A stretch of DNA of 64,000 bases from an uncultured Eubacteriales bacterium (lineage in GTDB: Bacteria; Bacillota; Clostridia; Oscillospirales; CAG-272), in NCBI GenBank assembly GCA_934481515.1, contig CAKSPO010000003.1, positions 4,250 to 68,249 of the forward strand. Reading direction: 5' to 3'. Numbering within the stretch: position 1 is the first letter of the stretch; each line of letters starts with the position of its first letter. The notes below the pieces were generated by a model. The model saw only the letters and a program-made list of their open reading frames with translations. It searched no databases and was not told the DNA's origin. Below are positions 3,440 through 50,840 of the stretch, one piece after another. The translations under genes were made by a program, and so were the position numbers.

Positions 3440-3561
3440 TTGCCGCGGGCATGTTCGGCTTTCATTCCTTTTCCGAAAAAATGTCAAACCAAAACGAAAA
3501 ATGCCGATATAAAAAACAATTTTTCCGGCGGTGCACAAGCGTTCCGGTTTTTTCTGATTCC

Positions 3562-3810
3562 GTAGGGGCGGGGTCTGCCCGCCCGTTTGTGCGGGTTTTG
3601 CGGCACATCGGGCATGGGGGGCACCAAGGATTGAATTCGATTTATTCAATTCACTGCGCCGCAAGAGAAAAACAAAATCCGGCGGGAGAAAACCGCCGGG
3701 ATGGTTGTGCAGGTTCCTTAGAAGCGGGCGGGTTGACCCCGCCCCTACGAGGGAGAGGGGATTCCGACGTTTGACGGGAGCCGGAAGCGGAATGTGCAGA
3801 TGGGATTTTT
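3562..3810. repeat. REP/MITE-like GC-hairpin repeat unit, copy 1
   Basis: The left arm is GTAGGGGCGGGGTCTGCCCGCCC (3562-3584). The right arm is GGGCGGGTTGACCCCGCCCCTAC (3726-3748). Each arm is itself a GGGCGGG/CCCGCCC hairpin. The 118-nt block at 3693-3810 recurs at 4122-4239. Confidence 0.8.
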
Positions 3811-3941
3811 GCCCAACAGGAGCCGGGGGCGGAGTGAAAAGCGGGATTTTTTCGTCCGGCGAAAGCCGATAAGAAAATGAAAAACGACCGCAATGAAAAA
3901 ATTTCCGGCTTCACATAAACATCAAATTTTCTATCAAGCCG

Positions 3942-4239
3942 GTAGGGGCGGGGTCAACCCGCCCGTTTGCACGGATTTTGCGGTACATCTGGTAGGGGCA
4001 CCAACAAGCGCCGCCCGTTTGTATGGGTTTCGTGGAATGTAGGAAAAGGGCATCAAGGATTGCCGTTCCGGTGGTTCGGATTCCGTATCACAGAGGGAAA
4101 CAAAAGCCAACGTCGGGAATCCCGCCGGGATGGTTGTGCGGATTCCTCAAAAGCGGGCGGGTAGACCCCGCCCCTACGAGGGAGAGGGGATTCCGACGTT
4201 TGACGGGAGCCGGAAGCGGAATGTGCAGATGGGATTTTT
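3942..4239. repeat. REP/MITE-like GC-hairpin repeat unit, copy 2
   Basis: The left arm at 3942-3964 is the exact reverse complement of 3726-3748. The right arm at 4155-4177 differs by 1 nt. The block 4122-4239 is near-identical to 3693-3810. Confidence 0.8.
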
Positions 4240-4390: not shown

Positions 4391-4510
4391 TATCTTATCA
4401 AGAGTAACGTAGTGACAGGCACGATGATGTTACAGCAACCTGCAGGAACGTAAGGTGCTAAATCCTGTTAGATGAGAGCCGGATTGCTCCGTCGGAACGG
4501 AGCTTTTTTG
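4391..4510 (+). promoter_or_regulatory. SAM-I (S-box) riboswitch with intrinsic terminator
   Basis: P1 pairs CTTATC (4394-) with GATGAG (4471-4476). Conserved ATCAAGAG, GATGA, AGCAACC and GGTGCTAAATCC elements are present. The terminator is CTCCGTCGGAACGGAG plus a T-run (4487-4510). It sits directly upstream of metK. Confidence 0.85.
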
Positions 4511-15716: not shown

Positions 15717-16439
15717 ATGTTGGAATTCAGAAATGTATCGTATACAGCCGAGGACGGGAAGAAAATTCTTTCCGATGTCAGCCTGCAGATCAATGACCGT
15801 TTTGTTGCCATTACGGGTCCCAATGGCGGCGGAAAGTCCACCATGGCAAAGCTGATTGCGGGAATTTACCGTCCGAGCGCCGGAAGAATTTATCTGGACG
15901 GGCAGGACATTACCGATTTGTCGGTCACGGAGCATGCGAAGTGCGGAATCAGCTTTGCGTTTCAGCAACCGGTTCGCTTCAAGGGGATTACCGTAAAGGA
16001 TCTGATTTCCATTGCGTCCGGCAAAAAAATTTCCGTCAATGAGGCTTGCCAGTATCTGTCGGAGGTCGGGCTTTGCGCCAAGGATTATATCAACCGGGAG
16101 GTGGATGCGTCCCTTTCCGGCGGAGAGCTGAAACGGATTGAGATTGCCATGATTAACGTGCGGGGCACCAAGCTGTCGGTGTTTGATGAGCCGGAGGCGG
16201 GAATTGATCTGTGGAGCTTTCAGAATCTGATTCAGGTATTCCGCAATATGTACGAGCGGACCCGGGGAAGCATTCTGATTATTTCCCATCAGGAGAGAAT
16301 TCTTGACATTGCGGATAAGATTATTGTCATTTCCGGCGGGAAAGTGGTTTCCTACGGGAGCCGGGAGGAGATTCTGCCGGAACTGTTGAGCCGGAAAACC
16401 TGTTGCCGCATGACAAAGGAGGAGTGCCATCATGATTGA
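15717..16439 (+). CDS. sufC: SufC-like ABC ATPase
   Basis: Walker A GPNGGGKST, signature LSGGELKR and Walker B SVFDEPEAG are present. It overlaps the SufBD gene by 8 nt. Confidence 0.8.
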   Translation: MLEFRNVSYTAEDGKKILSDVSLQINDRFVAITGPNGGGKSTMAKLIAGIYRPSAGRIYLDGQDITDLSVTEHAKCGISFAFQQPVRFKGITVKDLISIASGKKISVNEACQYLSEVGLCAKDYINREVDASLSGGELKRIEIAMINVRGTKLSVFDEPEAGIDLWSFQNLIQVFRNMYERTRGSILIISHQERILDIADKIIVISGGKVVSYGSREEILPELLSRKTCCRMTKEECHHD

Positions 16440-17352
16440 CGCCATTCAGAAAAAGCTTCTGGAAGAGGTTGCGGGGATTCACGAGGTGCCGGAAGGGGCT
16501 TACTCCCTGCGCATCAACGGCGCTCTTTACGGAAAGAACGATTCCGCCAATATTCACATTGAGAAAAAGACGGACAAGTCCGGCATTGATATTTATATTC
16601 ATCCGGGAACCAAAAACGAGAGTGTACACATTCCGGTGCTCCTGTCGCAGACGGGGCTGAAGGAGCTGGTATACAACGATTTTCACATCGGTGAGGGTGC
16701 GGACGTGACCATTGTCGCAGGGTGCGGCATCCACAACTCCGGCACGTCGGAGAGTGAGCACAGCGGGATTCACACCTTTTGGCTGGAGAAGAATGCACGG
16801 GTGCGCTATATCGAAAAGCACTACGGCGAGGGAGACGGAAACGGAAAAAATGTGATGAACCCCACCACAATTGCGTTCCTCGGCGAAAACAGCTATATGG
16901 AGATGGAAACTGCGCAGATCAAGGGGGTGGATTCCACCCGGCGCGAGACGCGCGCGACGCTGGAGGACGGGGCTGTGCTGGTGATTCATGAGAAGATCAT
17001 GACGCACGGGAGCCAAACGGCGGAGACGCATTTTACGGTAGACCTGAACGGGGTAGATTGCGGGACGCATGTCGTTTCCCGCTCGGTTGCGAGGGATCGG
17101 AGCCGGCAGGCATTTCTTTCCCATGTCAACGGAAACAACAAATGCAACGGGCACACCGAATGCGATGCCATTATTATGGATTCCGCATCCGTGACCGCTC
17201 TGCCGCAGATTGAAGCGAATCATGTGGATGCTTCTTTGATTCACGAGGCTGCCATCGGAAAGATTGCGGGAGAGCAGCTGATAAAGCTGATGACGCTGGG
17301 GCTGACCGAGAAGGAAGCCGAAGAGCAGATCATCAACGGCTTTCTGAACTGA
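16432..17352 (+). CDS. SufB/SufD-family Fe-S assembly protein
   Basis: 306 aa with a beta-helix-like repeat core. The C-terminal motif HEAAIGKIAGEQLIKLMTLGLTEKEAEEQIINGF is typical of SufBD. Confidence 0.8.
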   Translation: MIDAIQKKLLEEVAGIHEVPEGAYSLRINGALYGKNDSANIHIEKKTDKSGIDIYIHPGTKNESVHIPVLLSQTGLKELVYNDFHIGEGADVTIVAGCGIHNSGTSESEHSGIHTFWLEKNARVRYIEKHYGEGDGNGKNVMNPTTIAFLGENSYMEMETAQIKGVDSTRRETRATLEDGAVLVIHEKIMTHGSQTAETHFTVDLNGVDCGTHVVSRSVARDRSRQAFLSHVNGNNKCNGHTECDAIIMDSASVTALPQIEANHVDASLIHEAAIGKIAGEQLIKLMTLGLTEKEAEEQIINGFLN

Positions 17353-17449
17353 CACGCTTCGGAAGGTTTTCCGGCGGTTGCAGAAGTGTTCCGGTTTCTA
17401 CCGAGGTAGAAGAGATTTTTTGTCCGGCAAAATCTTTTGATACAAGAAT

Positions 17450-17484
17450 GGGGCTGTGAAAAACGTGATGTTTTTCACAGCCCC
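17450..17484. terminator. Palindromic hairpin GGGGCTGTGAAAAACGTGATGTTTTTCACAGCCCC between convergent sufBD and LRR genes
   Basis: It has a 14-bp stem and is followed by TGTTTTG on the + strand. A near-identical copy lies at 48963-48997. Confidence 0.7.
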
Positions 17485-17513
17485 TGTTTTGTTATTCGGT
17501 GGATTCGGATGGA

Positions 17514-19691
17514 TCAGATTTGGATTGTGCCGTCGGTGCAGACAACCTTCAGGGAAGCAGAGGTGTTATTCTTCCATCCGGATTCTTTCGTAATGGCGTT
17601 CCATTGTGCCATTGTTCCGGTGAATGTAACGGTGGTCAAATTGTAGCAATTGCAGAAGGCACTTGCACCGATGGAGGTTACACTATCCGGAATGGTGATG
17701 TTGGTCAGGCTGGAACAACCGTAGAATGCATTGTCTTCGATGGATGTTACGCTATTTGGAATGGCGACTTCGGTAAGAGAGGAACAACCTTCGAAGGCAC
17801 AGTCTCCGATGGTTATCACGCTATTTGGAATGGTGACTCCAGCAAGAGAGGAACAACCTTCGAAGGCACGGTCTCCAATGGTTGCTACGCTATTTGGAAC
17901 GGTGACTCCGGTAAGAGAAGAGCAACCTTCGAAGGCACAGTCTCCGATGGTTATCACGCTATTTGGAATGGTGACTCCAGCAAGAGAGGAACAACCCCGG
18001 AAGGCATGATTTTTGATAGTCGTTATGCCGTCGGGGATAACCAGCTCCGTGATTTCTGTTCCATTCAGGTACAGGTGCCCGGCGTATTGCAATGGATTTG
18101 AGCTCCAAGATGCAAACTCGATGTTGCACCATCTTGCAAGGTCTGTGATGTATACCGCGGTCAGGTTGGTGCAAATGTTGAAAGCAAAGGATCCGATGAA
18201 GGTGACCCCATTTCCGATGGTGATACCGGTCAGGCTGGAGCAGTTGTAGAAAGCCATTTCTCCGATGGAGGTGACGCTGCCCGGAATGGAGATGTTGGTC
18301 AGGCTGGAGCAGTTGGAGAAGGCTTCTGCTCCGATGGAGGTGACGCTATTTGGAATGGTAATGTTGGTCAGGCTGGAACAGTTGTAGAAAGCTCTTTTTT
18401 CGATGGAGGTGACGCTATTTGGAATGGTGATACTTGCAAGACCTGTACAACCGGAGAAAGCATGGTCTCCGATGGAAGTGACGCTGTCCGGAATGGTGAC
18501 GCTCTTGAAAGCGGTACAGTTGTAGAAAGCGTAGCTTCCGACGTTTGTTACGCCGTCGGGAATGACCAGTTCCGTGATTTCCGTTCCGTTCAAGTACAGG
18601 TGTTTGGCATGGGACAACGGATTTGAGGACCAAAATGCAAACTCGATGTTGCACCATCTTGCAAGGTCTGTGATGTATACCGCGGTCAGGTTGGAGCATT
18701 TGTAGAAGGCTTCTGCTCCGATGGAGGTTACACTATCCGGGATGGTGACGCTGGTCAGGTTGGAGCAGTTGTAGAAAGCTCTTTCTCCGATGGTGGTCAC
18801 ACCTTCTTCCAGCCGGATGACAATCGGAGTGGTGATATTTGCAAAGGCGTAATCACCGATGGTAGTTACATTGCCGGGAACGGTGATGCTTTTCAGAGAG
18901 GTACAGCCTGCAAATACGTTACTACCGATCGTGGTGATGTTTTTCCCGATGGAGATCGATTTCAGGCTGGCGCAATCCTTGAATGCGTCCGGCAGAATCT
19001 GTGTCACGGGCTTCCCAAAGTGGGTGTCCGGGATGGTGATTTCGCTCATGTACTTCATTTTTCCGCAACTGATGCCGTAGGTGCCGTCCGGGAGCGGGTA
19101 GTAATCGAATCCGTCCTCGCTTTCCTGCAAAAGGTCCGCAAGCGAACTGACCTTGACCGGATGGTCGGGATCGTCTGTGTAGGTGATCACCAGCCAGCCG
19201 TCGATGATCTCTACCTTCAGAATTCCGCGCCCGTCCTTTCCGGTGTCACCCTTGTCGCCCTTTTCGCCCTGAGCGCCGGTGTCACCTTTGTCACCTTTTT
19301 CGCCTTGGGCACCGGTGTCACCCTTGTCGCCCTTCTCGCCCTGAGCGCCGGTGTCACCCTTTTCGCCCTTTTCGCCCTGAGCGCCGGTGTCACCCTTTTC
19401 GCCCTGAGCGCCGGTGTCACCTTTCTCGCCCTTCTCGCCTTGGGCTCCGGTGTCACCTTTCTCGCCCTTCTCGCCTTGGGCACCGGTGTCGCCCTTCAAA
19501 GAGAGGAGCCACTCCTCAAGGGTTCCCTCAAAGCCTGCTGCTACGGCAAGCTCATATGCCGTTTTTCCTGCTTCCGGCGGCTGTGTCTCCTGATTTGCAC
19601 AAGCCTGCAGTGCAGTTGCCGAGAGCAGAAGCGCTAAAGCAGTTGCTCCGATTTTGCGGAACGCGGTTCGGTTTTGCTTTTTCGCGTGCAT
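17514..19691 (-). CDS. Surface lipoprotein: collagen-like GXY repeat region + BspA-type leucine-rich repeats
   Basis: The start is MHAKKQNRT (AAGGAGG RBS). The lipobox is LQAC. It has 30 uninterrupted G-X-Y triplets ([12 protein letters not shown]..., nt 19224-19493). After these come more than 20 ~23-aa repeats of the form xxIPxSVTSIGxxAFxxCSSLT. Confidence 0.85.
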
Positions 19692-19963
19692 GGTGTTTTC
19701 CTCCTTGCAATAAAAAATGAAATAAAAAAAGTGCGCCAGCCGAAGCTCGCGCACGAAAAACACAAACTCCGGTTGTCGCCAAACAAACTGAATAACGCAT
19801 AGGTGCTTTGCTTATCGCGTCCCTGCCCACACAATTATTCGGAATTTGCGTTTTTACCAATTCCGGGGTATGGTTAGGGATTCCCGATTTTTGTGCGACA
19901 AAACAAGACTATACCCCCAAAGGGCATAGCGTACCGCTGCGCGAATGATTCAGTTTGTTTGGC
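19692..19963 (-). promoter_or_regulatory. ~270-nt structured 5' leader (candidate cis-regulatory RNA) of the collagen-LRR gene
   Basis: A perfect 16-nt inverted repeat (19963-19948 with 19793-19778) encloses 154 nt that contain several local hairpins. The terminator follows. The predicted TSS coincides with the first arm. Confidence 0.5.
19724..19754 (-). terminator. Intrinsic terminator/attenuator hairpin inside the LRR-gene leader
   Basis: The minus strand reads GUGCGCGAGC-UUCG-GCUGGCGCAC followed by U7. It sits about 32 nt upstream of the start codon, immediately before the RBS. Confidence 0.7.
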
Positions 19964-19970
19964 ATTTTCT

Positions 19971-19999
19971 ATGATACACTTTTTTTGGAAGCTTGTCAA
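19971..19999 (-). promoter_or_regulatory. Sigma-A-type promoter for the collagen-LRR gene leader
   Basis: On the minus strand: TTGACA (19999-19994), a 17-nt spacer, then TATCAT (19976-19971). Confidence 0.65.
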
Positions 20000-20289
20000 G
20001 ATTTTTCCTGAAAATATTGGGTGTTTTCAACGATGGGGTGTGGTTTTCTTCCTGCATCGGAAGAATTGGAAGGCGAACGTTCAGCAGAAAAGGGGAAGGG
20101 GGAGAGGGAAGAGAGAAGCGGATGATTGCGGCGGAAGCGTCTGTGGGACTGGTGGAAAAACCAATGGACTGGCAACGATATGGATACCGATGGGTTGGGG
20201 ATTGCTTCGCGGATGTATGCCTTTTAAGACGGGCGTAAAGGCAGAATAAACGTGGCGTGAGCATGATACGGCGGCGGAGAGAACAACGA

Positions 20290-20334
20290 CGAAAACAAGA
20301 CCGAAAACAAGACCGAAAACAAGACCGAAAACGA
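20290..20334. repeat. 12-bp tandem repeat CGAAAACAAGAC x ~3.7
   Basis: Perfect copies at 20290-20301, 20302-20313 and 20314-20325, with a partial copy at 20326-20334. Confidence 0.95.
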
Positions 20335-20805
20335 TGCTTCCGGATGGTGGCGGGCGGTTGGTCTGACACGTTCTTCTTTGTTGCGGCGGCAAAGGGATAC
20401 TTTGGCGAATGGTTTCGGAAAAGAGGTGCGAAAGTGAAAAACGAAACTCATTCAGAATGTAGAAATTTTTGTCCGGAAAATGTGCAACTTTCACAAATCC
20501 AAAAAACGGGTTTTCTGACCTGAATTTCTTTTTTTGATGTCCGATTTGAAGTAAATAATATTTACTTTTCGTAGATTCGTCAAAAATGTATCAGATTGCC
20601 GTGGGTAAAAATACACAAAAAACAGGCTTGTTGGAATAAAAAGCACATATTTTTGTTAAATTAAATTTACTATCCGGAAAAAGGGCTTTTGGAAGGTGAA
20701 AAAAAGGGCAGAAGATTGTAAATTTTTTTCACATTGGATTTGACGCCTGAATGAATTTTCGCGCCGGAAGGGCGCCCCGGAGGAAAACGGTTGAAATGTT
20801 TTTGC

Positions 20806-20834
20806 TTGACAGGGCGGAGGTTTTGTGATATGAT
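20806..20834 (+). promoter_or_regulatory. Sigma-A-type promoter of the 7-gene operon
   Basis: TTGACA (20806-20811), a 17-nt spacer, then TATGAT (20829-20834). It sits after an AT-rich tract. Confidence 0.65.
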
Positions 20835-21061
20835 ATTACTATCTTATTTGAGGAAAACTCTGTTTTGCTGAAACAGTCCGGGGGTTTTCCGAATAGAAAT
20901 CCACCCGCTATGCCGCAGAAAATCCGGCGTTCCGGAGGATCGGCAGCAGGGTGGGAGATACGACATTTTTCCGCTGAGAGAGTTTTTTACGACTCTTTTT
21001 GCGGAATTTTTGCCGAAAAAACGGACAGAAGCCCTTTAACGATTTGCAGGAGGAAACGCAA

Positions 21062-24000
21062 ATGAGAAAAACACGATTCACGAGATTCTTGTGCCTGACA
21101 CTGGCGCTTTTGTGTCTTGTGAGCAGCACTGTGCTTGCCGTCAGTGCCGACAGCGGATCGGGTCATTCGAATACGACGGATAAGTCGATCAATGACTATC
21201 AGCAGACGCTGGAGACCATCAGTTACGACGAGTATCAGGCACTGTACTTCAAGGGGGTCACGAAAGCAACGGAAGCCACCGTTCTGCCGATGACCGACAA
21301 CTGGGTTTTCCGGAACGGCGGAATCACCATCACGATGACCGACGGCGTATGGAAAATGACCGACTCCGACGGAACCGTTTATACCTCGGCGGATGCCGCG
21401 GCGGAGGCGGGGCATGAGAAGAGCGATCTTGCCTATGTGGATTCCTTTGACGGTGTGACTGCGGTCTATACGCCGAGCGTCGGAACCATGACATGGAAGG
21501 TCAGCCTGACCGAGAAGAACATCCGCTCGGCAATGCTGTTCAACCTTTCTCTGCAATATTATCCCATTGCCTCCAAACCGAGTGCGGTGGAGCGGGAATT
21601 CTACATCAACGGGGAAGCGCCTTTCTCCGAAGCGCGTTCGCTGTCGCTGTCCAAGATGTGGTCCTCCTATCAGCAGGGCGGAACCTCCTCCGACAAACGG
21701 GAGATGGTGGGAACCTACCGTCTCGGGAAGGATGATACGCTGGAGGCGGTTGTACGCGACGCAGAGGATGCGGGATTTGTTTCCGGAAAGACCTATACGG
21801 TTTCCGACGACCGTTCTTCCGTCAGCGTGATTTATCCGAAGGTCTTCACCGTGAAAATCAATGCGTTTCTTGAGAAATACGGAATCCGGTTCTTCGGGAC
21901 GGATGCGGACAACAATGAAATCCGTCCTTCCCAGTTGCAGACGCCGGAATGGATGGAGTATCTGTTCCACGACAGCGAAGGCTTTTCCCATACGTATGCC
22001 GCAAGTGCATCCGAAATTTATGCAAGTGAAAACTTCGGATTCCTCATCGGACCGGATGCAGACGGGAATCTGGAATTTTCGCTGAAGAGCGTCAACGAGC
22101 CTGCCGTATTCTCTTCTCTGACGCTTCTGCCGTATACTTCTGCTCCTTCCTACGAGGATTACCGGAAGGACATTGTTTCCAAAGTGGGCGACGCCCAGGG
22201 AAAAAGCATCCTGAAGCTGGAAGCAGAGTATACCAGACATACCTCTACCAATGTTGTCTATCCGGTGGAGGACAGAACCTCTGCAAACTCCTCTCCGGTG
22301 GATACCACCCGCACAGTGCTGAATACCATCGGTACGGAAAAGTGGGAGACTGCGGGACAGTGGGTGGAATACACCTTCTCGGTGGATTCCTCCGGATTTT
22401 ATGATGTGTATTCCCGTTTCCGCCAGAGCTACCTTGACGGTATGTATGTCAACCGTTCTCTGCAGCTCTTTACCGAAGGCGACCGCGCGGACTACGTGAG
22501 CCGGAACGGAAATGATGCCGGCTACTATGACGGCCTCCCCTTTGCCGAGGCGGCAAAGCTCCGCTACAATTACGGAACCGGCTGGCAGGTGACCAAACTT
22601 GCCTCCGAGGGCGGCGAAAATGTTCCTACCTATCAATTGTATCTGCGCGCAGGCGAGGTTTACACGCTTCGTCTGGAGGTGACGCTCGGTTCCATGAGTG
22701 AGCAGGTACAGAAGATCCGGGCGATCCTGAATGCACTCAATGACGATTACCTTGCAATCATCAAGCTGACCGGAACGTCTCCCGACGACTACCGCGACTA
22801 CAGCTTTACACGGCTTCTGCCGGATACCATGATCGATTTCTTTACCCAGAAGGCAGCGCTGAACGAGGTATCTGCGTTCCTGAAGAACACTGCCGGGGTT
22901 GCTTCCACCTATTCCGGTACCTGTGACAAACTCAGTGCTCTGCTGGACAGAATGGGACTGGACGAAAACGAAATTGCAAAGAACCTTGAAACCTTCAAGA
23001 GCTATGTCGGCTCGCTCGGTACGTTCCTGACCGATGCCATGACGCAGCCGCTTCAGTTGGATTATCTGATGATTCAGCCTGCGGACGCGGAAGCGCCCAA
23101 GGGAGCGGCGGGCTTCTTCCGGACGCTGTGGCATGAGCTGAAAAGCTTCATTCAGAGCTTCTTCCGCGATTACAACAGCATGGGTGCAATGGAAAGCGCG
23201 AACGGCGCCGGCGAAACCATCAATGTCTGGGTTCCTTACGGACGTGACCAGGCAAACGTGCTCCGGAACCTTTCCACCAACGGCTTTACCCAGCAGACCA
23301 ATATTGCCGTAGACCTGAAGCTGGTCAACGGCGGAACCCTGCTGCCTTCCATTCTGGCGGGCATGGGACCGGATGTTTACCTCGGACTCGGACATGAGAC
23401 GGTCATCAACTATGCAATCCGCGGTGCATTGCTGAACATTGAAACGATGGAACATGATTCCGTGAAAGACTTCGAGCGGGAGATGCTGAAGGATTTCAAT
23501 GCAGCGGCACTGAACGTGCTCGGAATCGCCGATGCCGACAACGAGATGCATTATTACGGCTTGCCGGAAACGCAGGGCTTTTCCATGATGTTTGTCCGTC
23601 TGGATGTTCTGTACAATCTGGGCATTGAGATTCCCAAGACATGGGAAGAAATCTATGTGGCACAGTCCAAGCTGGAGTCCAATAATATGAAGATCGGTGT
23701 TACCACCGACTATAAGATTTTCCTCTATCAGATGGGAGGAGACCTGTGGGCAGATAACGGTATGCGGATCAATCTGGATTCCACAATGGGACTTGCGGCA
23801 TTTGAAAAGATGTGCGGCATGTTTACGCAGTATTCCTTCCCGTACCAGTATGAGGCGGCAAACCGCTTCCGTACCGGAGAAATGCCGATCATCATTGCAA
23901 GCTATACGGCACTGTACAACCAGCTGAAGGTATTTGCAACCGAGCTTGACGGCAACTGGACCTTCGTTCCGATGCCCGGCTGGGAGACCGTCAATGAGGA

Positions 24001-24817
24001 CGGCACCACCACCATCAACAACAGCTCTATTTCCGCTGTTTCCGCAGTCGTCATGGTAGACGGAGTTAAGAAGCGGGATGCGGCATGGGAGTACATGAAG
24101 TGGTACACCGGAGCCGAAGCGCAGTCTTCCTACGCAAACGAGATGGTGGCAATCATCGGTGACTCTGCAAAGCACTCCACCGCAAACCGCGAGGCGCTCA
24201 AGAGCATGCCTTGGACGCACGACGAGTATGTGGAGGTTTCCAAGCAGTTCGAAAACCTTGCTTCCGTCAACAACTACCCCGGATATTACTACATTGACCG
24301 TTACACCAACTTCGCATTCCTCGCTGCTTACAACGATGATGCAAACCCGACCACAAAACTGCTCAGCTATATCAATACCATCAACAACGAAATTACCCGG
24401 AAGCGGGCAGAGTTTGGTCTGGAAACGCTGGAAATCGGTCAGACGCTGGCAAAGAAGAGAATGGATCAGGCAACCGCTGCATTGAAGCTGCTGGAGGATA
24501 ATCATAAGAAGGATGCATATACCGCTGCCATCGAGCTTGCCAAATACGGTATTGCAAACCAGAAGGTTGCGCAACTGCGGGAGGCTTCCGAGCAGTTCAT
24601 GACGCTTTTGAAGGGCGAGTGGGACGGCTCGACGCGCACCATTACCAAGGTCAGCGGAAAGACCGCTGAAATGCCTTCCTATTATGTAAATGTCAGCAAG
24701 CAGACCATGGAGACCAAATCCGGAGGCTACAGAATAGAAGACCTGAACCTTCAGGAACTGCTCTACTTCATTTCCGAGTGCCTCGGAGATGCGGCGGATG
24801 CACTGGCTTCTTACTGA
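21062..24817 (+). CDS. Giant (1251-aa) extracellular solute-binding protein: N-terminal ~700-aa extension with CBM-like beta-sandwich + C-terminal family-1 sugar SBP module
   Basis: The start is MRKTRFTRFLCLTLALLCLV (AGGAGG RBS). It has a signal peptide or anchor without a lipobox. WETAGQWVEYTFSVDSSGFYDVYSRF has a CBM-like signature (nt ~22220-22690). From ETINVWVPYG onward (nt ~23210-24430) it reads as a typical LplA/CUT1-type SBP. Confidence 0.75.
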   Translation: MRKTRFTRFLCLTLALLCLVSSTVLAVSADSGSGHSNTTDKSINDYQQTLETISYDEYQALYFKGVTKATEATVLPMTDNWVFRNGGITITMTDGVWKMTDSDGTVYTSADAAAEAGHEKSDLAYVDSFDGVTAVYTPSVGTMTWKVSLTEKNIRSAMLFNLSLQYYPIASKPSAVEREFYINGEAPFSEARSLSLSKMWSSYQQGGTSSDKREMVGTYRLGKDDTLEAVVRDAEDAGFVSGKTYTVSDDRSSVSVIYPKVFTVKINAFLEKYGIRFFGTDADNNEIRPSQLQTPEWMEYLFHDSEGFSHTYAASASEIYASENFGFLIGPDADGNLEFSLKSVNEPAVFSSLTLLPYTSAPSYEDYRKDIVSKVGDAQGKSILKLEAEYTRHTSTNVVYPVEDRTSANSSPVDTTRTVLNTIGTEKWETAGQWVEYTFSVDSSGFYDVYSRFRQSYLDGMYVNRSLQLFTEGDRADYVSRNGNDAGYYDGLPFAEAAKLRYNYGTGWQVTKLASEGGENVPTYQLYLRAGEVYTLRLEVTLGSMSEQVQKIRAILNALNDDYLAIIKLTGTSPDDYRDYSFTRLLPDTMIDFFTQKAALNEVSAFLKNTAGVASTYSGTCDKLSALLDRMGLDENEIAKNLETFKSYVGSLGTFLTDAMTQPLQLDYLMIQPADAEAPKGAAGFFRTLWHELKSFIQSFFRDYNSMGAMESANGAGETINVWVPYGRDQANVLRNLSTNGFTQQTNIAVDLKLVNGGTLLPSILAGMGPDVYLGLGHETVINYAIRGALLNIETMEHDSVKDFEREMLKDFNAAALNVLGIADADNEMHYYGLPETQGFSMMFVRLDVLYNLGIEIPKTWEEIYVAQSKLESNNMKIGVTTDYKIFLYQMGGDLWADNGMRINLDSTMGLAAFEKMCGMFTQYSFPYQYEAANRFRTGEMPIIIASYTALYNQLKVFATELDGNWTFVPMPGWETVNEDGTTTINNSSISAVSAVVMVDGVKKRDAAWEYMKWYTGAEAQSSYANEMVAIIGDSAKHSTANREALKSMPWTHDEYVEVSKQFENLASVNNYPGYYYIDRYTNFAFLAAYNDDANPTTKLLSYINTINNEITRKRAEFGLETLEIGQTLAKKRMDQATAALKLLEDNHKKDAYTAAIELAKYGIANQKVAQLREASEQFMTLLKGEWDGSTRTITKVSGKTAEMPSYYVNVSKQTMETKSGGYRIEDLNLQELLYFISECLGDAADALASY

Positions 24818-49160: not shown

Positions 49161-50840
49161 TCAGGTGTTCTTTCCGTCCGGAGGATTGTTCTCCGCAATC
49201 GGAGATTCTGCTGTAGCCCCGGAAGTGTCTTTTTCTGCTTCTGCTTCCGCTTCCAGTTGCGTCTGTTTTGCCTCTGCGATTGCCACCTCGGTGACGCGGG
49301 TCAGGTTCTCCAACAGGGTTGCCGTTGCATAGCGGCGGTTCCGCTTCCGGATCTTCTCCAGCGCCCGGCGGATTTCCGGCCGCAATTCCGCCCTCCGCTC
49401 CTCCGGCGTTTCCGGGTCATTCAGCTCCACAAAGGAGAGCACCAGATGCAATTCGCTGTGCTGAATGATCTGCACCTGTTCGCCGATGCCGAGCCTGGTG
49501 CGGCGACGTCCGGAAAGCGGCTGATAATCCGATGCCACCACGACCTCCAGTGCAGAGCATCCTGTGAACAGACCTCTGCCGAACGAAATCCGGGTATTCG
49601 GGAAAATCACCGTCTGCAAGGCGCTGCAATCCGCAAACACACCGTCTCCTGCTTTGCGCAGATGCACCGGGAGACTGACAGAGTGCAGGCTGGAACAGCC
49701 CGCAAAAGCGCGGTCGCCAAGTACGGCAAGCTCCCGCGGCATCCGGACGGAGGTCAGGGAAGAACAACCGGAAAAAGCGTTCTCTTCCACCTCCAGCACG
49801 GTTTGCGGCAGAACAATGGATTGCAGGGAAATGCATTCGGTAAAAGTGGATGCCTCAATCAACGTCAGAGATGCTTCTATTTTTACCTCCCGGAGGGCTG
49901 TGCAGTAAGCGAAAGCCATACGGGAAACGTCCTGCACGGTTTCCGGGATTGTCAACTCCTCCAGTGCGGCACAATGGAGAAATGCCGAGTTTCCGATCCG
50001 GGTAAGCCCCTGCGGCAGGTGGAAATCCTTCAGTTTCTTGCAGGCGCAAAGCGCCGCGTTCCCGATATAGGATAGCTCCGTCGGAACCTCTAAAGACACC
50101 AGGGAATCGCAGCAGGAGAAGGTATAGTCCCCGATAAAGCGGATTTTTCCGGGCAGCCGCATCTGCTGCAAGGAGCGGCATTCGCTGAATGTACCGCTTC
50201 CGAGATAGGTCAGTCCTTCCGGAAGTTCCAACGATTCCAGGGAAGTGCACCGGGCAAAGGCGTATCTGCCGACGGACTGCACTTTCTCCGGAATGACCAG
50301 ATGCCGGAGGGAACGGCAATTGAAAAAAGTTGCCCGGTGAATGGCGTCCAGCCCTTCCGGCAGTTGAAGTTCCTCCAACGCTACGCAGTCGGAAAATGCC
50401 ATTCTTCCCAAGCGTTTGAGCGACGCGGAAAGCAGAACGTAGTGCAGCTCCGAGCAGCCCCGGAAGCAGGCATCCCCGACATATTGCAGTGTGCGCGGTA
50501 AAAGTGCCGCGGCAAGCATCCGGCATCCGTCAAACGCTCCCATGCCAAGCTCCGTCAGCCCTGTCGGAAACACTACCTGGCGCAGGGCGGTACAGTCACG
50601 GAAGGCGTTGGTGCCGACCGTATGCACGTTTTCCCCCAAAACCACGCGGGTCAGGTTCCGGTTCCCGCGGAAGGCATCCTCCGCAATCACGGTGACAGAC
50701 GCAGGAATGACGACCTCCGGACTTTTTCCGTAATAGCGGATGAATTCTCCGTCACGTACCTCACTGCATCGCAGAAGCTCCGCCTCTGCCGCTGATACTT
50801 CCTTTTTTGTTGTCTGTTCGTTCTGCTTATTCTCTTCCAT
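49161..50840 (-). CDS. BspA-type leucine-rich-repeat protein without signal peptide, charged coiled C-terminus
   Basis: The start is MEENKQNEQ (AGGAG RBS). It has about 19 repeats of the form xAFxxCxxLxxVxLPxxLxxIG. The C-terminal 110 aa are Arg/Glu-rich. Confidence 0.8.
   Translation of the reverse strand: MEENKQNEQTTKKEVSAAEAELLRCSEVRDGEFIRYYGKSPEVVIPASVTVIAEDAFRGNRNLTRVVLGENVHTVGTNAFRDCTALRQVVFPTGLTELGMGAFDGCRMLAAALLPRTLQYVGDACFRGCSELHYVLLSASLKRLGRMAFSDCVALEELQLPEGLDAIHRATFFNCRSLRHLVIPEKVQSVGRYAFARCTSLESLELPEGLTYLGSGTFSECRSLQQMRLPGKIRFIGDYTFSCCDSLVSLEVPTELSYIGNAALCACKKLKDFHLPQGLTRIGNSAFLHCAALEELTIPETVQDVSRMAFAYCTALREVKIEASLTLIEASTFTECISLQSIVLPQTVLEVEENAFSGCSSLTSVRMPRELAVLGDRAFAGCSSLHSVSLPVHLRKAGDGVFADCSALQTVIFPNTRISFGRGLFTGCSALEVVVASDYQPLSGRRRTRLGIGEQVQIIQHSELHLVLSFVELNDPETPEERRAELRPEIRRALEKIRKRNRRYATATLLENLTRVTEVAIAEAKQTQLEAEAEAEKDTSGATAESPIAENNPPDGKNT

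Follow-up and report, generated by a model that had tools for sequence, protein, structure and literature searches.

The region upstream of a surface lipoprotein gene in an uncultured Eubacteriales bacterium raises the question of whether the structured element that separates promoter and start codon acts as RNA, by stopping transcription early, or as DNA, by inverting. In gut Clostridia, lipoproteins that combine BspA-type LRRs with a collagen-like stalk are candidates for binding to host or mucus. The stretch of DNA that we analyzed, hereafter the window, has 64,000 nucleotides. Its minus strand encodes, at 17514-19691, a lipoprotein of 725 aa in which profile matches and the translation reveal the lipobox LQAC, collagen-like repeats (Collagen, E=6.5e-15), and BspA-type LRR_5 repeats (LRR_5, E=1e-131). 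The gene is flanked by sufCD (15717-17352, plus strand) and by a divergent gene for a solute-binding protein (SBP) of 1251 aa (21062-24817).

The leader of the lipoprotein gene lies on the minus strand and starts with a sigma-70-type promoter, TTGACA-17-TATCAT (19999-19971), which matches the consensus at 11 of 12 positions and places the predicted +1 at ~19964/19963. Within 1-2 nt of this position begins the 5' arm of a 16-nt inverted repeat, GCCAAACAAACTGAAT (= GCCAAACAAACUGAAU; 19963-19948), identified in a repeat search. The 3' arm, AUUCAGUUUGUUUGGC (19793-19778), is its perfect complement. The repeat stops abruptly and could be extended by a single possible U-G pair. The enclosed segment of 154 nt (19794-19947) has a moderate, sense-biased structure with three local hairpins (CGGAAUU/AAUUCCG, GGGGUAU/AUACCCC, and UUUUGU/ACAAAA), and a promoter scan found no promoter in it in either orientation. 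An internal hairpin with three G-U pairs, GCUAUGCCCU-UUG-GGGGUAUAGU, is followed by the U-rich tail CUUGUUUUGU (19898-19930) and was called as a terminator-like site at 19930-19908; the three G-U pairs of this main interior hairpin would become A-C mismatches on the opposite strand. Past the 3' arm come a U/G-rich linker of 23 nt (19755-19777), which contains the stretch AGUUUGUGUUU resembling the 3' arm, and an intrinsic terminator outside the inverted repeat, GUGCGCGAGC-UUCG-GCUGGCGCAC plus U7 (19724-19754). The GC-rich stem of this terminator has nine pairs and one G/G mismatch, with a dG of -16.7 kcal/mol by folding. From the end of the U-tract it is 17 nt to the Shine-Dalgarno sequence AAGGAGG (19700-19706; 8 nt before the start codon) and 33 nt to the ATG at 19691. 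The initial annotation had described this anatomy, including the helix that starts next to +1, the three hairpins, and the 23-nt spacing before the terminator, and each of these parts was recovered in our analysis. Their order, from promoter through structured leader and intrinsic terminator to ribosome-binding site (RBS), is the standard one of attenuators.

The element is real and non-random. When the 1.37-kb intergenic region was dinucleotide-shuffled 3000 times and gaps of 30-450 nt were allowed, a perfect inverted repeat with arms of 16 nt or more was present in only two shuffles (p ~7e-4), and the window as a whole has very few other perfect repeats of long range. The arm-arm helix has 16 bp, no wobble pair, and a dG of -22.9 kcal/mol. 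The whole leader folds with a z of -5.7, and the 154-nt interior alone with a z of -2.96 in sense and -1.98 in antisense.

Between the terminator and the RBS, the promoter scan found no sigma-70-like site with at least 9 of 12 matches, as had been claimed before. Hence, the lipoprotein is expected to be expressed only via read-through of the terminator, and this proposal of the initial annotation is supported. Since the terminator is not enclosed by the repeat and is predicted to fold irrespective of how the segment is oriented (its stem has a pair probability of ~0.8 in both cases, in an equilibrium fold), control of read-through is needed under any model.

We tentatively favor, among the explanations considered, an orphan 5' leader that acts as RNA, through premature transcription termination. 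Transcription from the strong promoter would begin at ~19964/19963. The first 16 nt would form a helix with nt 172-187, closing off a compact domain of 186 nt at the very 5' end, where the terminal helix would shield the 5' end from 5'-dependent RNases. After 23 nt more, the intrinsic terminator would halt most polymerases and yield a transcript of ~240 nt, and the collagen/LRR lipoprotein would be produced solely from the read-through fraction. This fraction may be constitutive and low, or may be raised by a factor that blocks the 5' arm of the terminator. The best candidate that we can infer for such a block is the putative antiterminator strand UUCGCGCA (19945-19938), whose complement UGCGCGAG (19753-19746) is part of the 5' arm of the terminator. 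The predicted pairing of 8 bp (-13.0 kcal/mol) would be pseudoknotted with respect to the closing helix; it is not significant and could be due to chance, with a probability that we roughly estimate to be near 0.1.

Relatives of the element were sought at several levels. Look-ups via SufC, SufD, the SBP protein, and an antisense ORF retrieved other assemblies, and the leader is present in only three of them (the gut metagenome assemblies ERZ27287398, ERZ28613922, and ERZ28614047), where it is 100% identical. The segment has the same orientation in the window and in these three, i.e., in 4/4 consensus assemblies, and there is no contig break at the repeat. This amounts to one distinct leader sequence, without any covariation to be read. 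Conservation in relatives, on which the initial annotation had staked its proposal, was not found. The gene, the leader, and a non-coding CT-rich stretch of 450 nt form a species-specific block (17354-20454). This block is absent from the sister species (L073; ~87% nucleotide identity in the flanking genes), which has ~880 nt of unrelated non-coding DNA instead. In ~15 further GTDB genomes (L008-L035; SufD ~80% amino acid identity), sufD and the SBP gene are separated by 700-900 nt that contain no LRR gene. By these comparisons of sequence, the cassette of gene, leader, and CT-rich stretch is confined to one species.

The lipoprotein family itself, which we recognized by the N-terminal domain ILKxEIIDG...GKPVTQILP, also has members elsewhere. 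We collected ~18 homologous loci, five by exact-protein look-up (L052, L053, L054-56, L057, and L058/59) and 13 from metagenomes (L060-L072), and none has a leader composed of promoter, repeat, and terminator. Instead, the homologous genes have a plain promoter 40-70 nt from the ATG and a short UTR, or lie directly behind the preceding gene. A conserved leader of the lipoprotein gene family is ruled out by these loci. Two consecutive long hairpins are found ~150-300 nt upstream of the lipoprotein ATG in some of them (L061, L062, L063, L069, and L070), with perfect arms of 13-23 nt whose sequence varies between loci while the pairing is kept. Both hairpins are located before the promoter of the lipoprotein gene and resemble a tandem of terminators for the gene that precedes it.

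Searches with the leader sequence gave no match among 64 fetched loci (573 kb; nhmmer and blastn) or, using BLAST, in phage and plasmid collections. Scans for the exact pair of inverted repeats resulted in 0 matches in 185,579 species genomes, JGI metagenomes, and IMG/VR viral contigs. The leader has no match in Rfam 15 at gathering thresholds, the sole match of the window being a SAM riboswitch (4392-4478), and even at E<=10 with permissive filters the region 19600-20100 gave just three chance-level matches of 14-16 bits. A known RNA family is thus ruled out, in agreement with the initial annotation, which had recognized in the fold no known riboswitch, T-box, or leader class. We also rejected a leader peptide or type I toxin (the sole ORF has 17 aa and lacks a Shine-Dalgarno sequence), a retron msr/msd (no RT gene), an integron attC site (the core sites do not fit), and 6S RNA and T-box (no covariance model match). 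Taken as a whole, the earlier proposal of a novel cis-regulatory leader RNA stands as far as the anatomy is concerned, but the claim that it represents a new cis-regulatory RNA class is unsupported, there being no comparative support for it.

The strongest competitor of the RNA leader is an inverton with an outside promoter, of the type of cwpV and flgB in C. difficile, which we consider possible if somewhat doubtful. In such a switch, a site-specific recombinase encoded elsewhere would flip the 154-bp segment between the 16-bp repeats. The present orientation would place an extra hairpin and U-tract ~35-67 nt after the transcription start and leave the gene off or at a lower level; in the flipped one the internal hairpin would be lost, and the outcome would be phase variation of the surface lipoprotein. 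The junctions of the segment are AAACAAACTGAATCATTCGCGCAGCGG and GCACCTATGCGTTATTCAGTTTGTTTGG as it stands and would be AAACAAACTGAATAACGCATAGGTGCT and CCGCTGCGCGAATGATTCAGTTTGTTTGG after flipping. The repeat has the looks of a recombination site, being perfectly Watson-Crick paired with abrupt ends and hardly due to chance (p ~7e-4), and it lies between the promoter and the start codon of a surface-exposed repeat protein. The internal hairpin with CUUGUUUUGU is terminator-like in the present orientation only, with a dG of -12.8 kcal/mol, against -6.3 kcal/mol and no U-tract when flipped. Furthermore, the segment lacks an internal promoter, as do those of cwpV and flgB, and restriction to one species, as seen for the element, is usual for invertons.

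However, only one orientation was seen in the four consensus assemblies, which are alike and lack a contig break, and there is no recombinase in the window: none of its ~50 ORFs matched the Phage_integrase or Resolvase domains. In C. difficile, RecV acts at a distance. Most invertons of Clostridia group 139 have a recombinase nearby, and Clostridia-like gut genomes have a median of 3 invertons, with inverted repeats of 14-26 bp and interiors of ~200 bp (PMC11892184). The strong terminator outside the repeat is also predicted in both orientations, so that flipping alone would not switch the gene on. Finally, inversion leaves unexplained why the first nucleotide of the repeat falls right at the predicted +1. 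A stem that closes the 5' end of an RNA is expected to start there, whereas a recombination site would do so by coincidence only, and this is one reason why we infer that the repeat acts in RNA rather than in DNA. The same preference is drawn from the interior, which is more structured in sense and has a main hairpin that uses G-U pairs; from the combination of attenuator layout, whole-leader z, and lack of a promoter before the RBS; and from the shared orientation of the 4/4 assemblies together with the lack of recombinase domains in the window.

Other observations weaken the case for an RNA leader. It has no homologue in the collections searched, and the genes related to ours combine a plain promoter with a short UTR. 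The closing helix is too stable (~-23 kcal/mol) and neither overlaps nor competes with the terminator, so that it is unlike a ligand-switchable P1: a perfect helix of 16 bp is not switchable in this manner, and it can coexist with the terminator. The initial annotation had suggested the linker as an alternative partner of the 5' arm. The resemblance of the linker to the 3' arm is indeed present, but the duplex with the 5' arm is weak, at merely -7.6 kcal/mol compared with -22.9 kcal/mol for the arm-arm helix. The candidate antiterminator, in turn, has only 8 bp. Surface proteins, moreover, are typical targets of DNA inversion and rare targets of attenuators, which we also counted against an RNA leader. 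All in all, the choice between an RNA-level leader and a DNA inversion switch is roughly even, with the RNA leader slightly ahead. A more specific version, in which the 186-nt domain would be the sensor of an as yet undescribed, lineage-restricted antitermination system, seems very unlikely. In this version a ligand, protein, or small RNA would bind the domain or its CA-rich 5' arm and free UUCGCGCA, which would then pair with the terminator 5' arm and let the polymerase enter the collagen/LRR adhesin gene.

Known systems resemble the element in part. The cwpV switch of C. difficile (Cdi1; Emerson et al. 2009, PMC2784873) also has its promoter upstream of the left repeat, short inverted repeats that enclose a promoter-less segment of ~150-200 bp within the 5' UTR for a repeat protein of the cell surface, and one orientation that gives a hairpin and U-tract a few tens of nucleotides after the transcription start. 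Its segment has 195 bp and an upstream promoter, and the terminator of the OFF state lies 60-70 nt after the transcription start (PMC2784873). In contrast to the perfect 16-bp repeats found here, those of cwpV have 21 bp and are imperfect; our element has a second, strong terminator outside the repeats, shows no inversion in four assemblies, lacks a RecV-like recombinase in the window, and has no sequence similarity to cwpV. The C. difficile flagellar switch (Cdi4; Anjuwon-Foster & Tamayo 2017, PMC5386303) has 21-bp repeats around a segment of 154 bp, lies in the long 5' UTR of flgB, and acts after initiation, by a mechanism that is Rho-dependent (PMC7446863). The identical length of the segment, 154 bp, is probably a coincidence. 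The UTR of flgB also contains a terminator-based element, in that case the Cd1 c-di-GMP riboswitch, whose terminator is upstream of the switch whereas ours is downstream, and both orientations are documented there as opposed to one here.

On the RNA side, attenuating leaders and riboswitches of surface-protein genes in Clostridia (e.g., c-di-GMP-I/II) share with our leader a promoter, a domain closed by a helix between its 5' and 3' ends, a terminator, an RBS, and an adhesin-like target. The closing helix found here is nevertheless far too stable for a leader of this kind, it does not overlap an antiterminator, and no Rfam match was obtained even at E<=10. Riboswitch classes are defined by conservation across genomes, whereas for this leader no conservation was found in any other genome searched.

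An insertion without an evolved regulatory role is unlikely. It would be a foldback or MITE-like element, or a local inverted duplication, that separates an ordinary promoter from a short UTR; the long hairpin would be co-transcribed and at most affect mRNA processing, like Correia elements. Since the promoters of the homologues are 40-70 nt from the ATG, the extra ~270 nt do look added, the 186 bp have terminal inverted repeats, and other small repeat units flanked by inverted repeats are present in the same genome (3561-4178). The Correia elements of Neisseria, too, are units of 100-200 bp with terminal inverted repeats that can lie between promoter and gene and give a long-hairpin transcript. 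Unlike them, our element is a single copy, without target-site duplication (the flanks are AAAAT and GACAA) and without family members in the collections scanned: no second copy was found in the 64 kb at up to 3 mismatches, and none in the genome, metagenome, and viral scans. An insertion would also leave the following terminator unexplained. We thus consider it less likely than an RNA leader or an inverton. The repeat units at 3561-4178 are intergenic, upstream of the SAM riboswitch and metK, where four copies of GTAGGGGCGGGGTCnnCCCGCCC(GTTTG) in alternating orientation build two tandem units of ~190-240 nt, each within imperfect inverted repeats of 27-34 nt. They look MITE- or REP-like by their sequence, and did not occur in 74 fetched loci.

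A free-standing small RNA gene, i.e., a promoter, a structured RNA of ~240 nt, and a terminator, with a role in trans or otherwise and only leak-through for the lipoprotein, is rather improbable: a near-consensus promoter and a strong terminator do bracket a compact fold with paired 5' and 3' parts that has no visible coupling to the terminator, but the U-tract ends 17 nt before the RBS of a gene without its own promoter, which is the layout of a cis-leader, no small RNA family matched, no conservation was found, and element and gene are parts of one and the same species-specific block.

What the locus means depends on the explanation. An inverton would extend to an uncultured commensal lineage the rare type of C. 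difficile switch in which the promoter is outside and control is terminator-based. An RNA attenuator would be an orphan element, and only if the sensor version were true would it be a new attenuator class for a host-interaction surface protein, in an uncultured species of gut Clostridia. With inverton and attenuator alike, little expression of the lipoprotein gene is predicted for the state that was sequenced, a point to bear in mind in metagenome-based inference of function. The practical value is limited, as the element is found in one species only and comparative validation is impossible.

A few minor observations concern the leader and its surroundings. An outer perfect inverted repeat of 10 nt brackets the whole leader, with AAAAAAAGTG in the promoter spacer (19986-19977) and CACTTTTTTT at the end of the terminator stem and in the U-tract (19733-19724); it is of low complexity and probably due to chance. 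The first codons of the lipoprotein, GCACGCGAAAAAGCAAAAC (19671-19689), are 74% complementary to the linker and the terminator 5' arm (19749-19767), and the RBS spacer GGAAAACAC is able to pair with GUGUUUUUC of the linker over 9 bp. The linker could thereby mask the translation start in read-through transcripts, although these sequences are of low complexity. A second BspA-type LRR paralogue of ~30% identity (49161-50838, minus strand) is located directly after a flotillin-like gene; it has no leader but a short intergenic region with a terminator.

On the other side of the intergenic region, the SBP gene is preceded by a promoter of its own (TTGACA-17-TG-TATGAT, 20806-20834), and its 5' UTR has ~225 nt. 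Parts of the sequence upstream of this gene (20455-21061) are kept in relatives at 55-66% protein identity, so this gene may have a conserved leader or regulatory region that is separate from the element described here. A 12-nt tandem repeat, GAAAACAAGACC (plus strand; 20279-20338), lies ~290-340 nt upstream of the leader promoter, and its copy number differs between strains, with three copies in the window and two in assembly L001. The 10-mer GTCTTGTTTT occurs four times in the 64 kb, compared with 0.14 expected. Three of these copies are in the 12-nt tandem repeat (20291-20326) and one is at 19909-19900 (minus strand), directly after the internal hairpin of the leader. This recurrence could reflect a shared protein-binding site or be the trace of a common origin.
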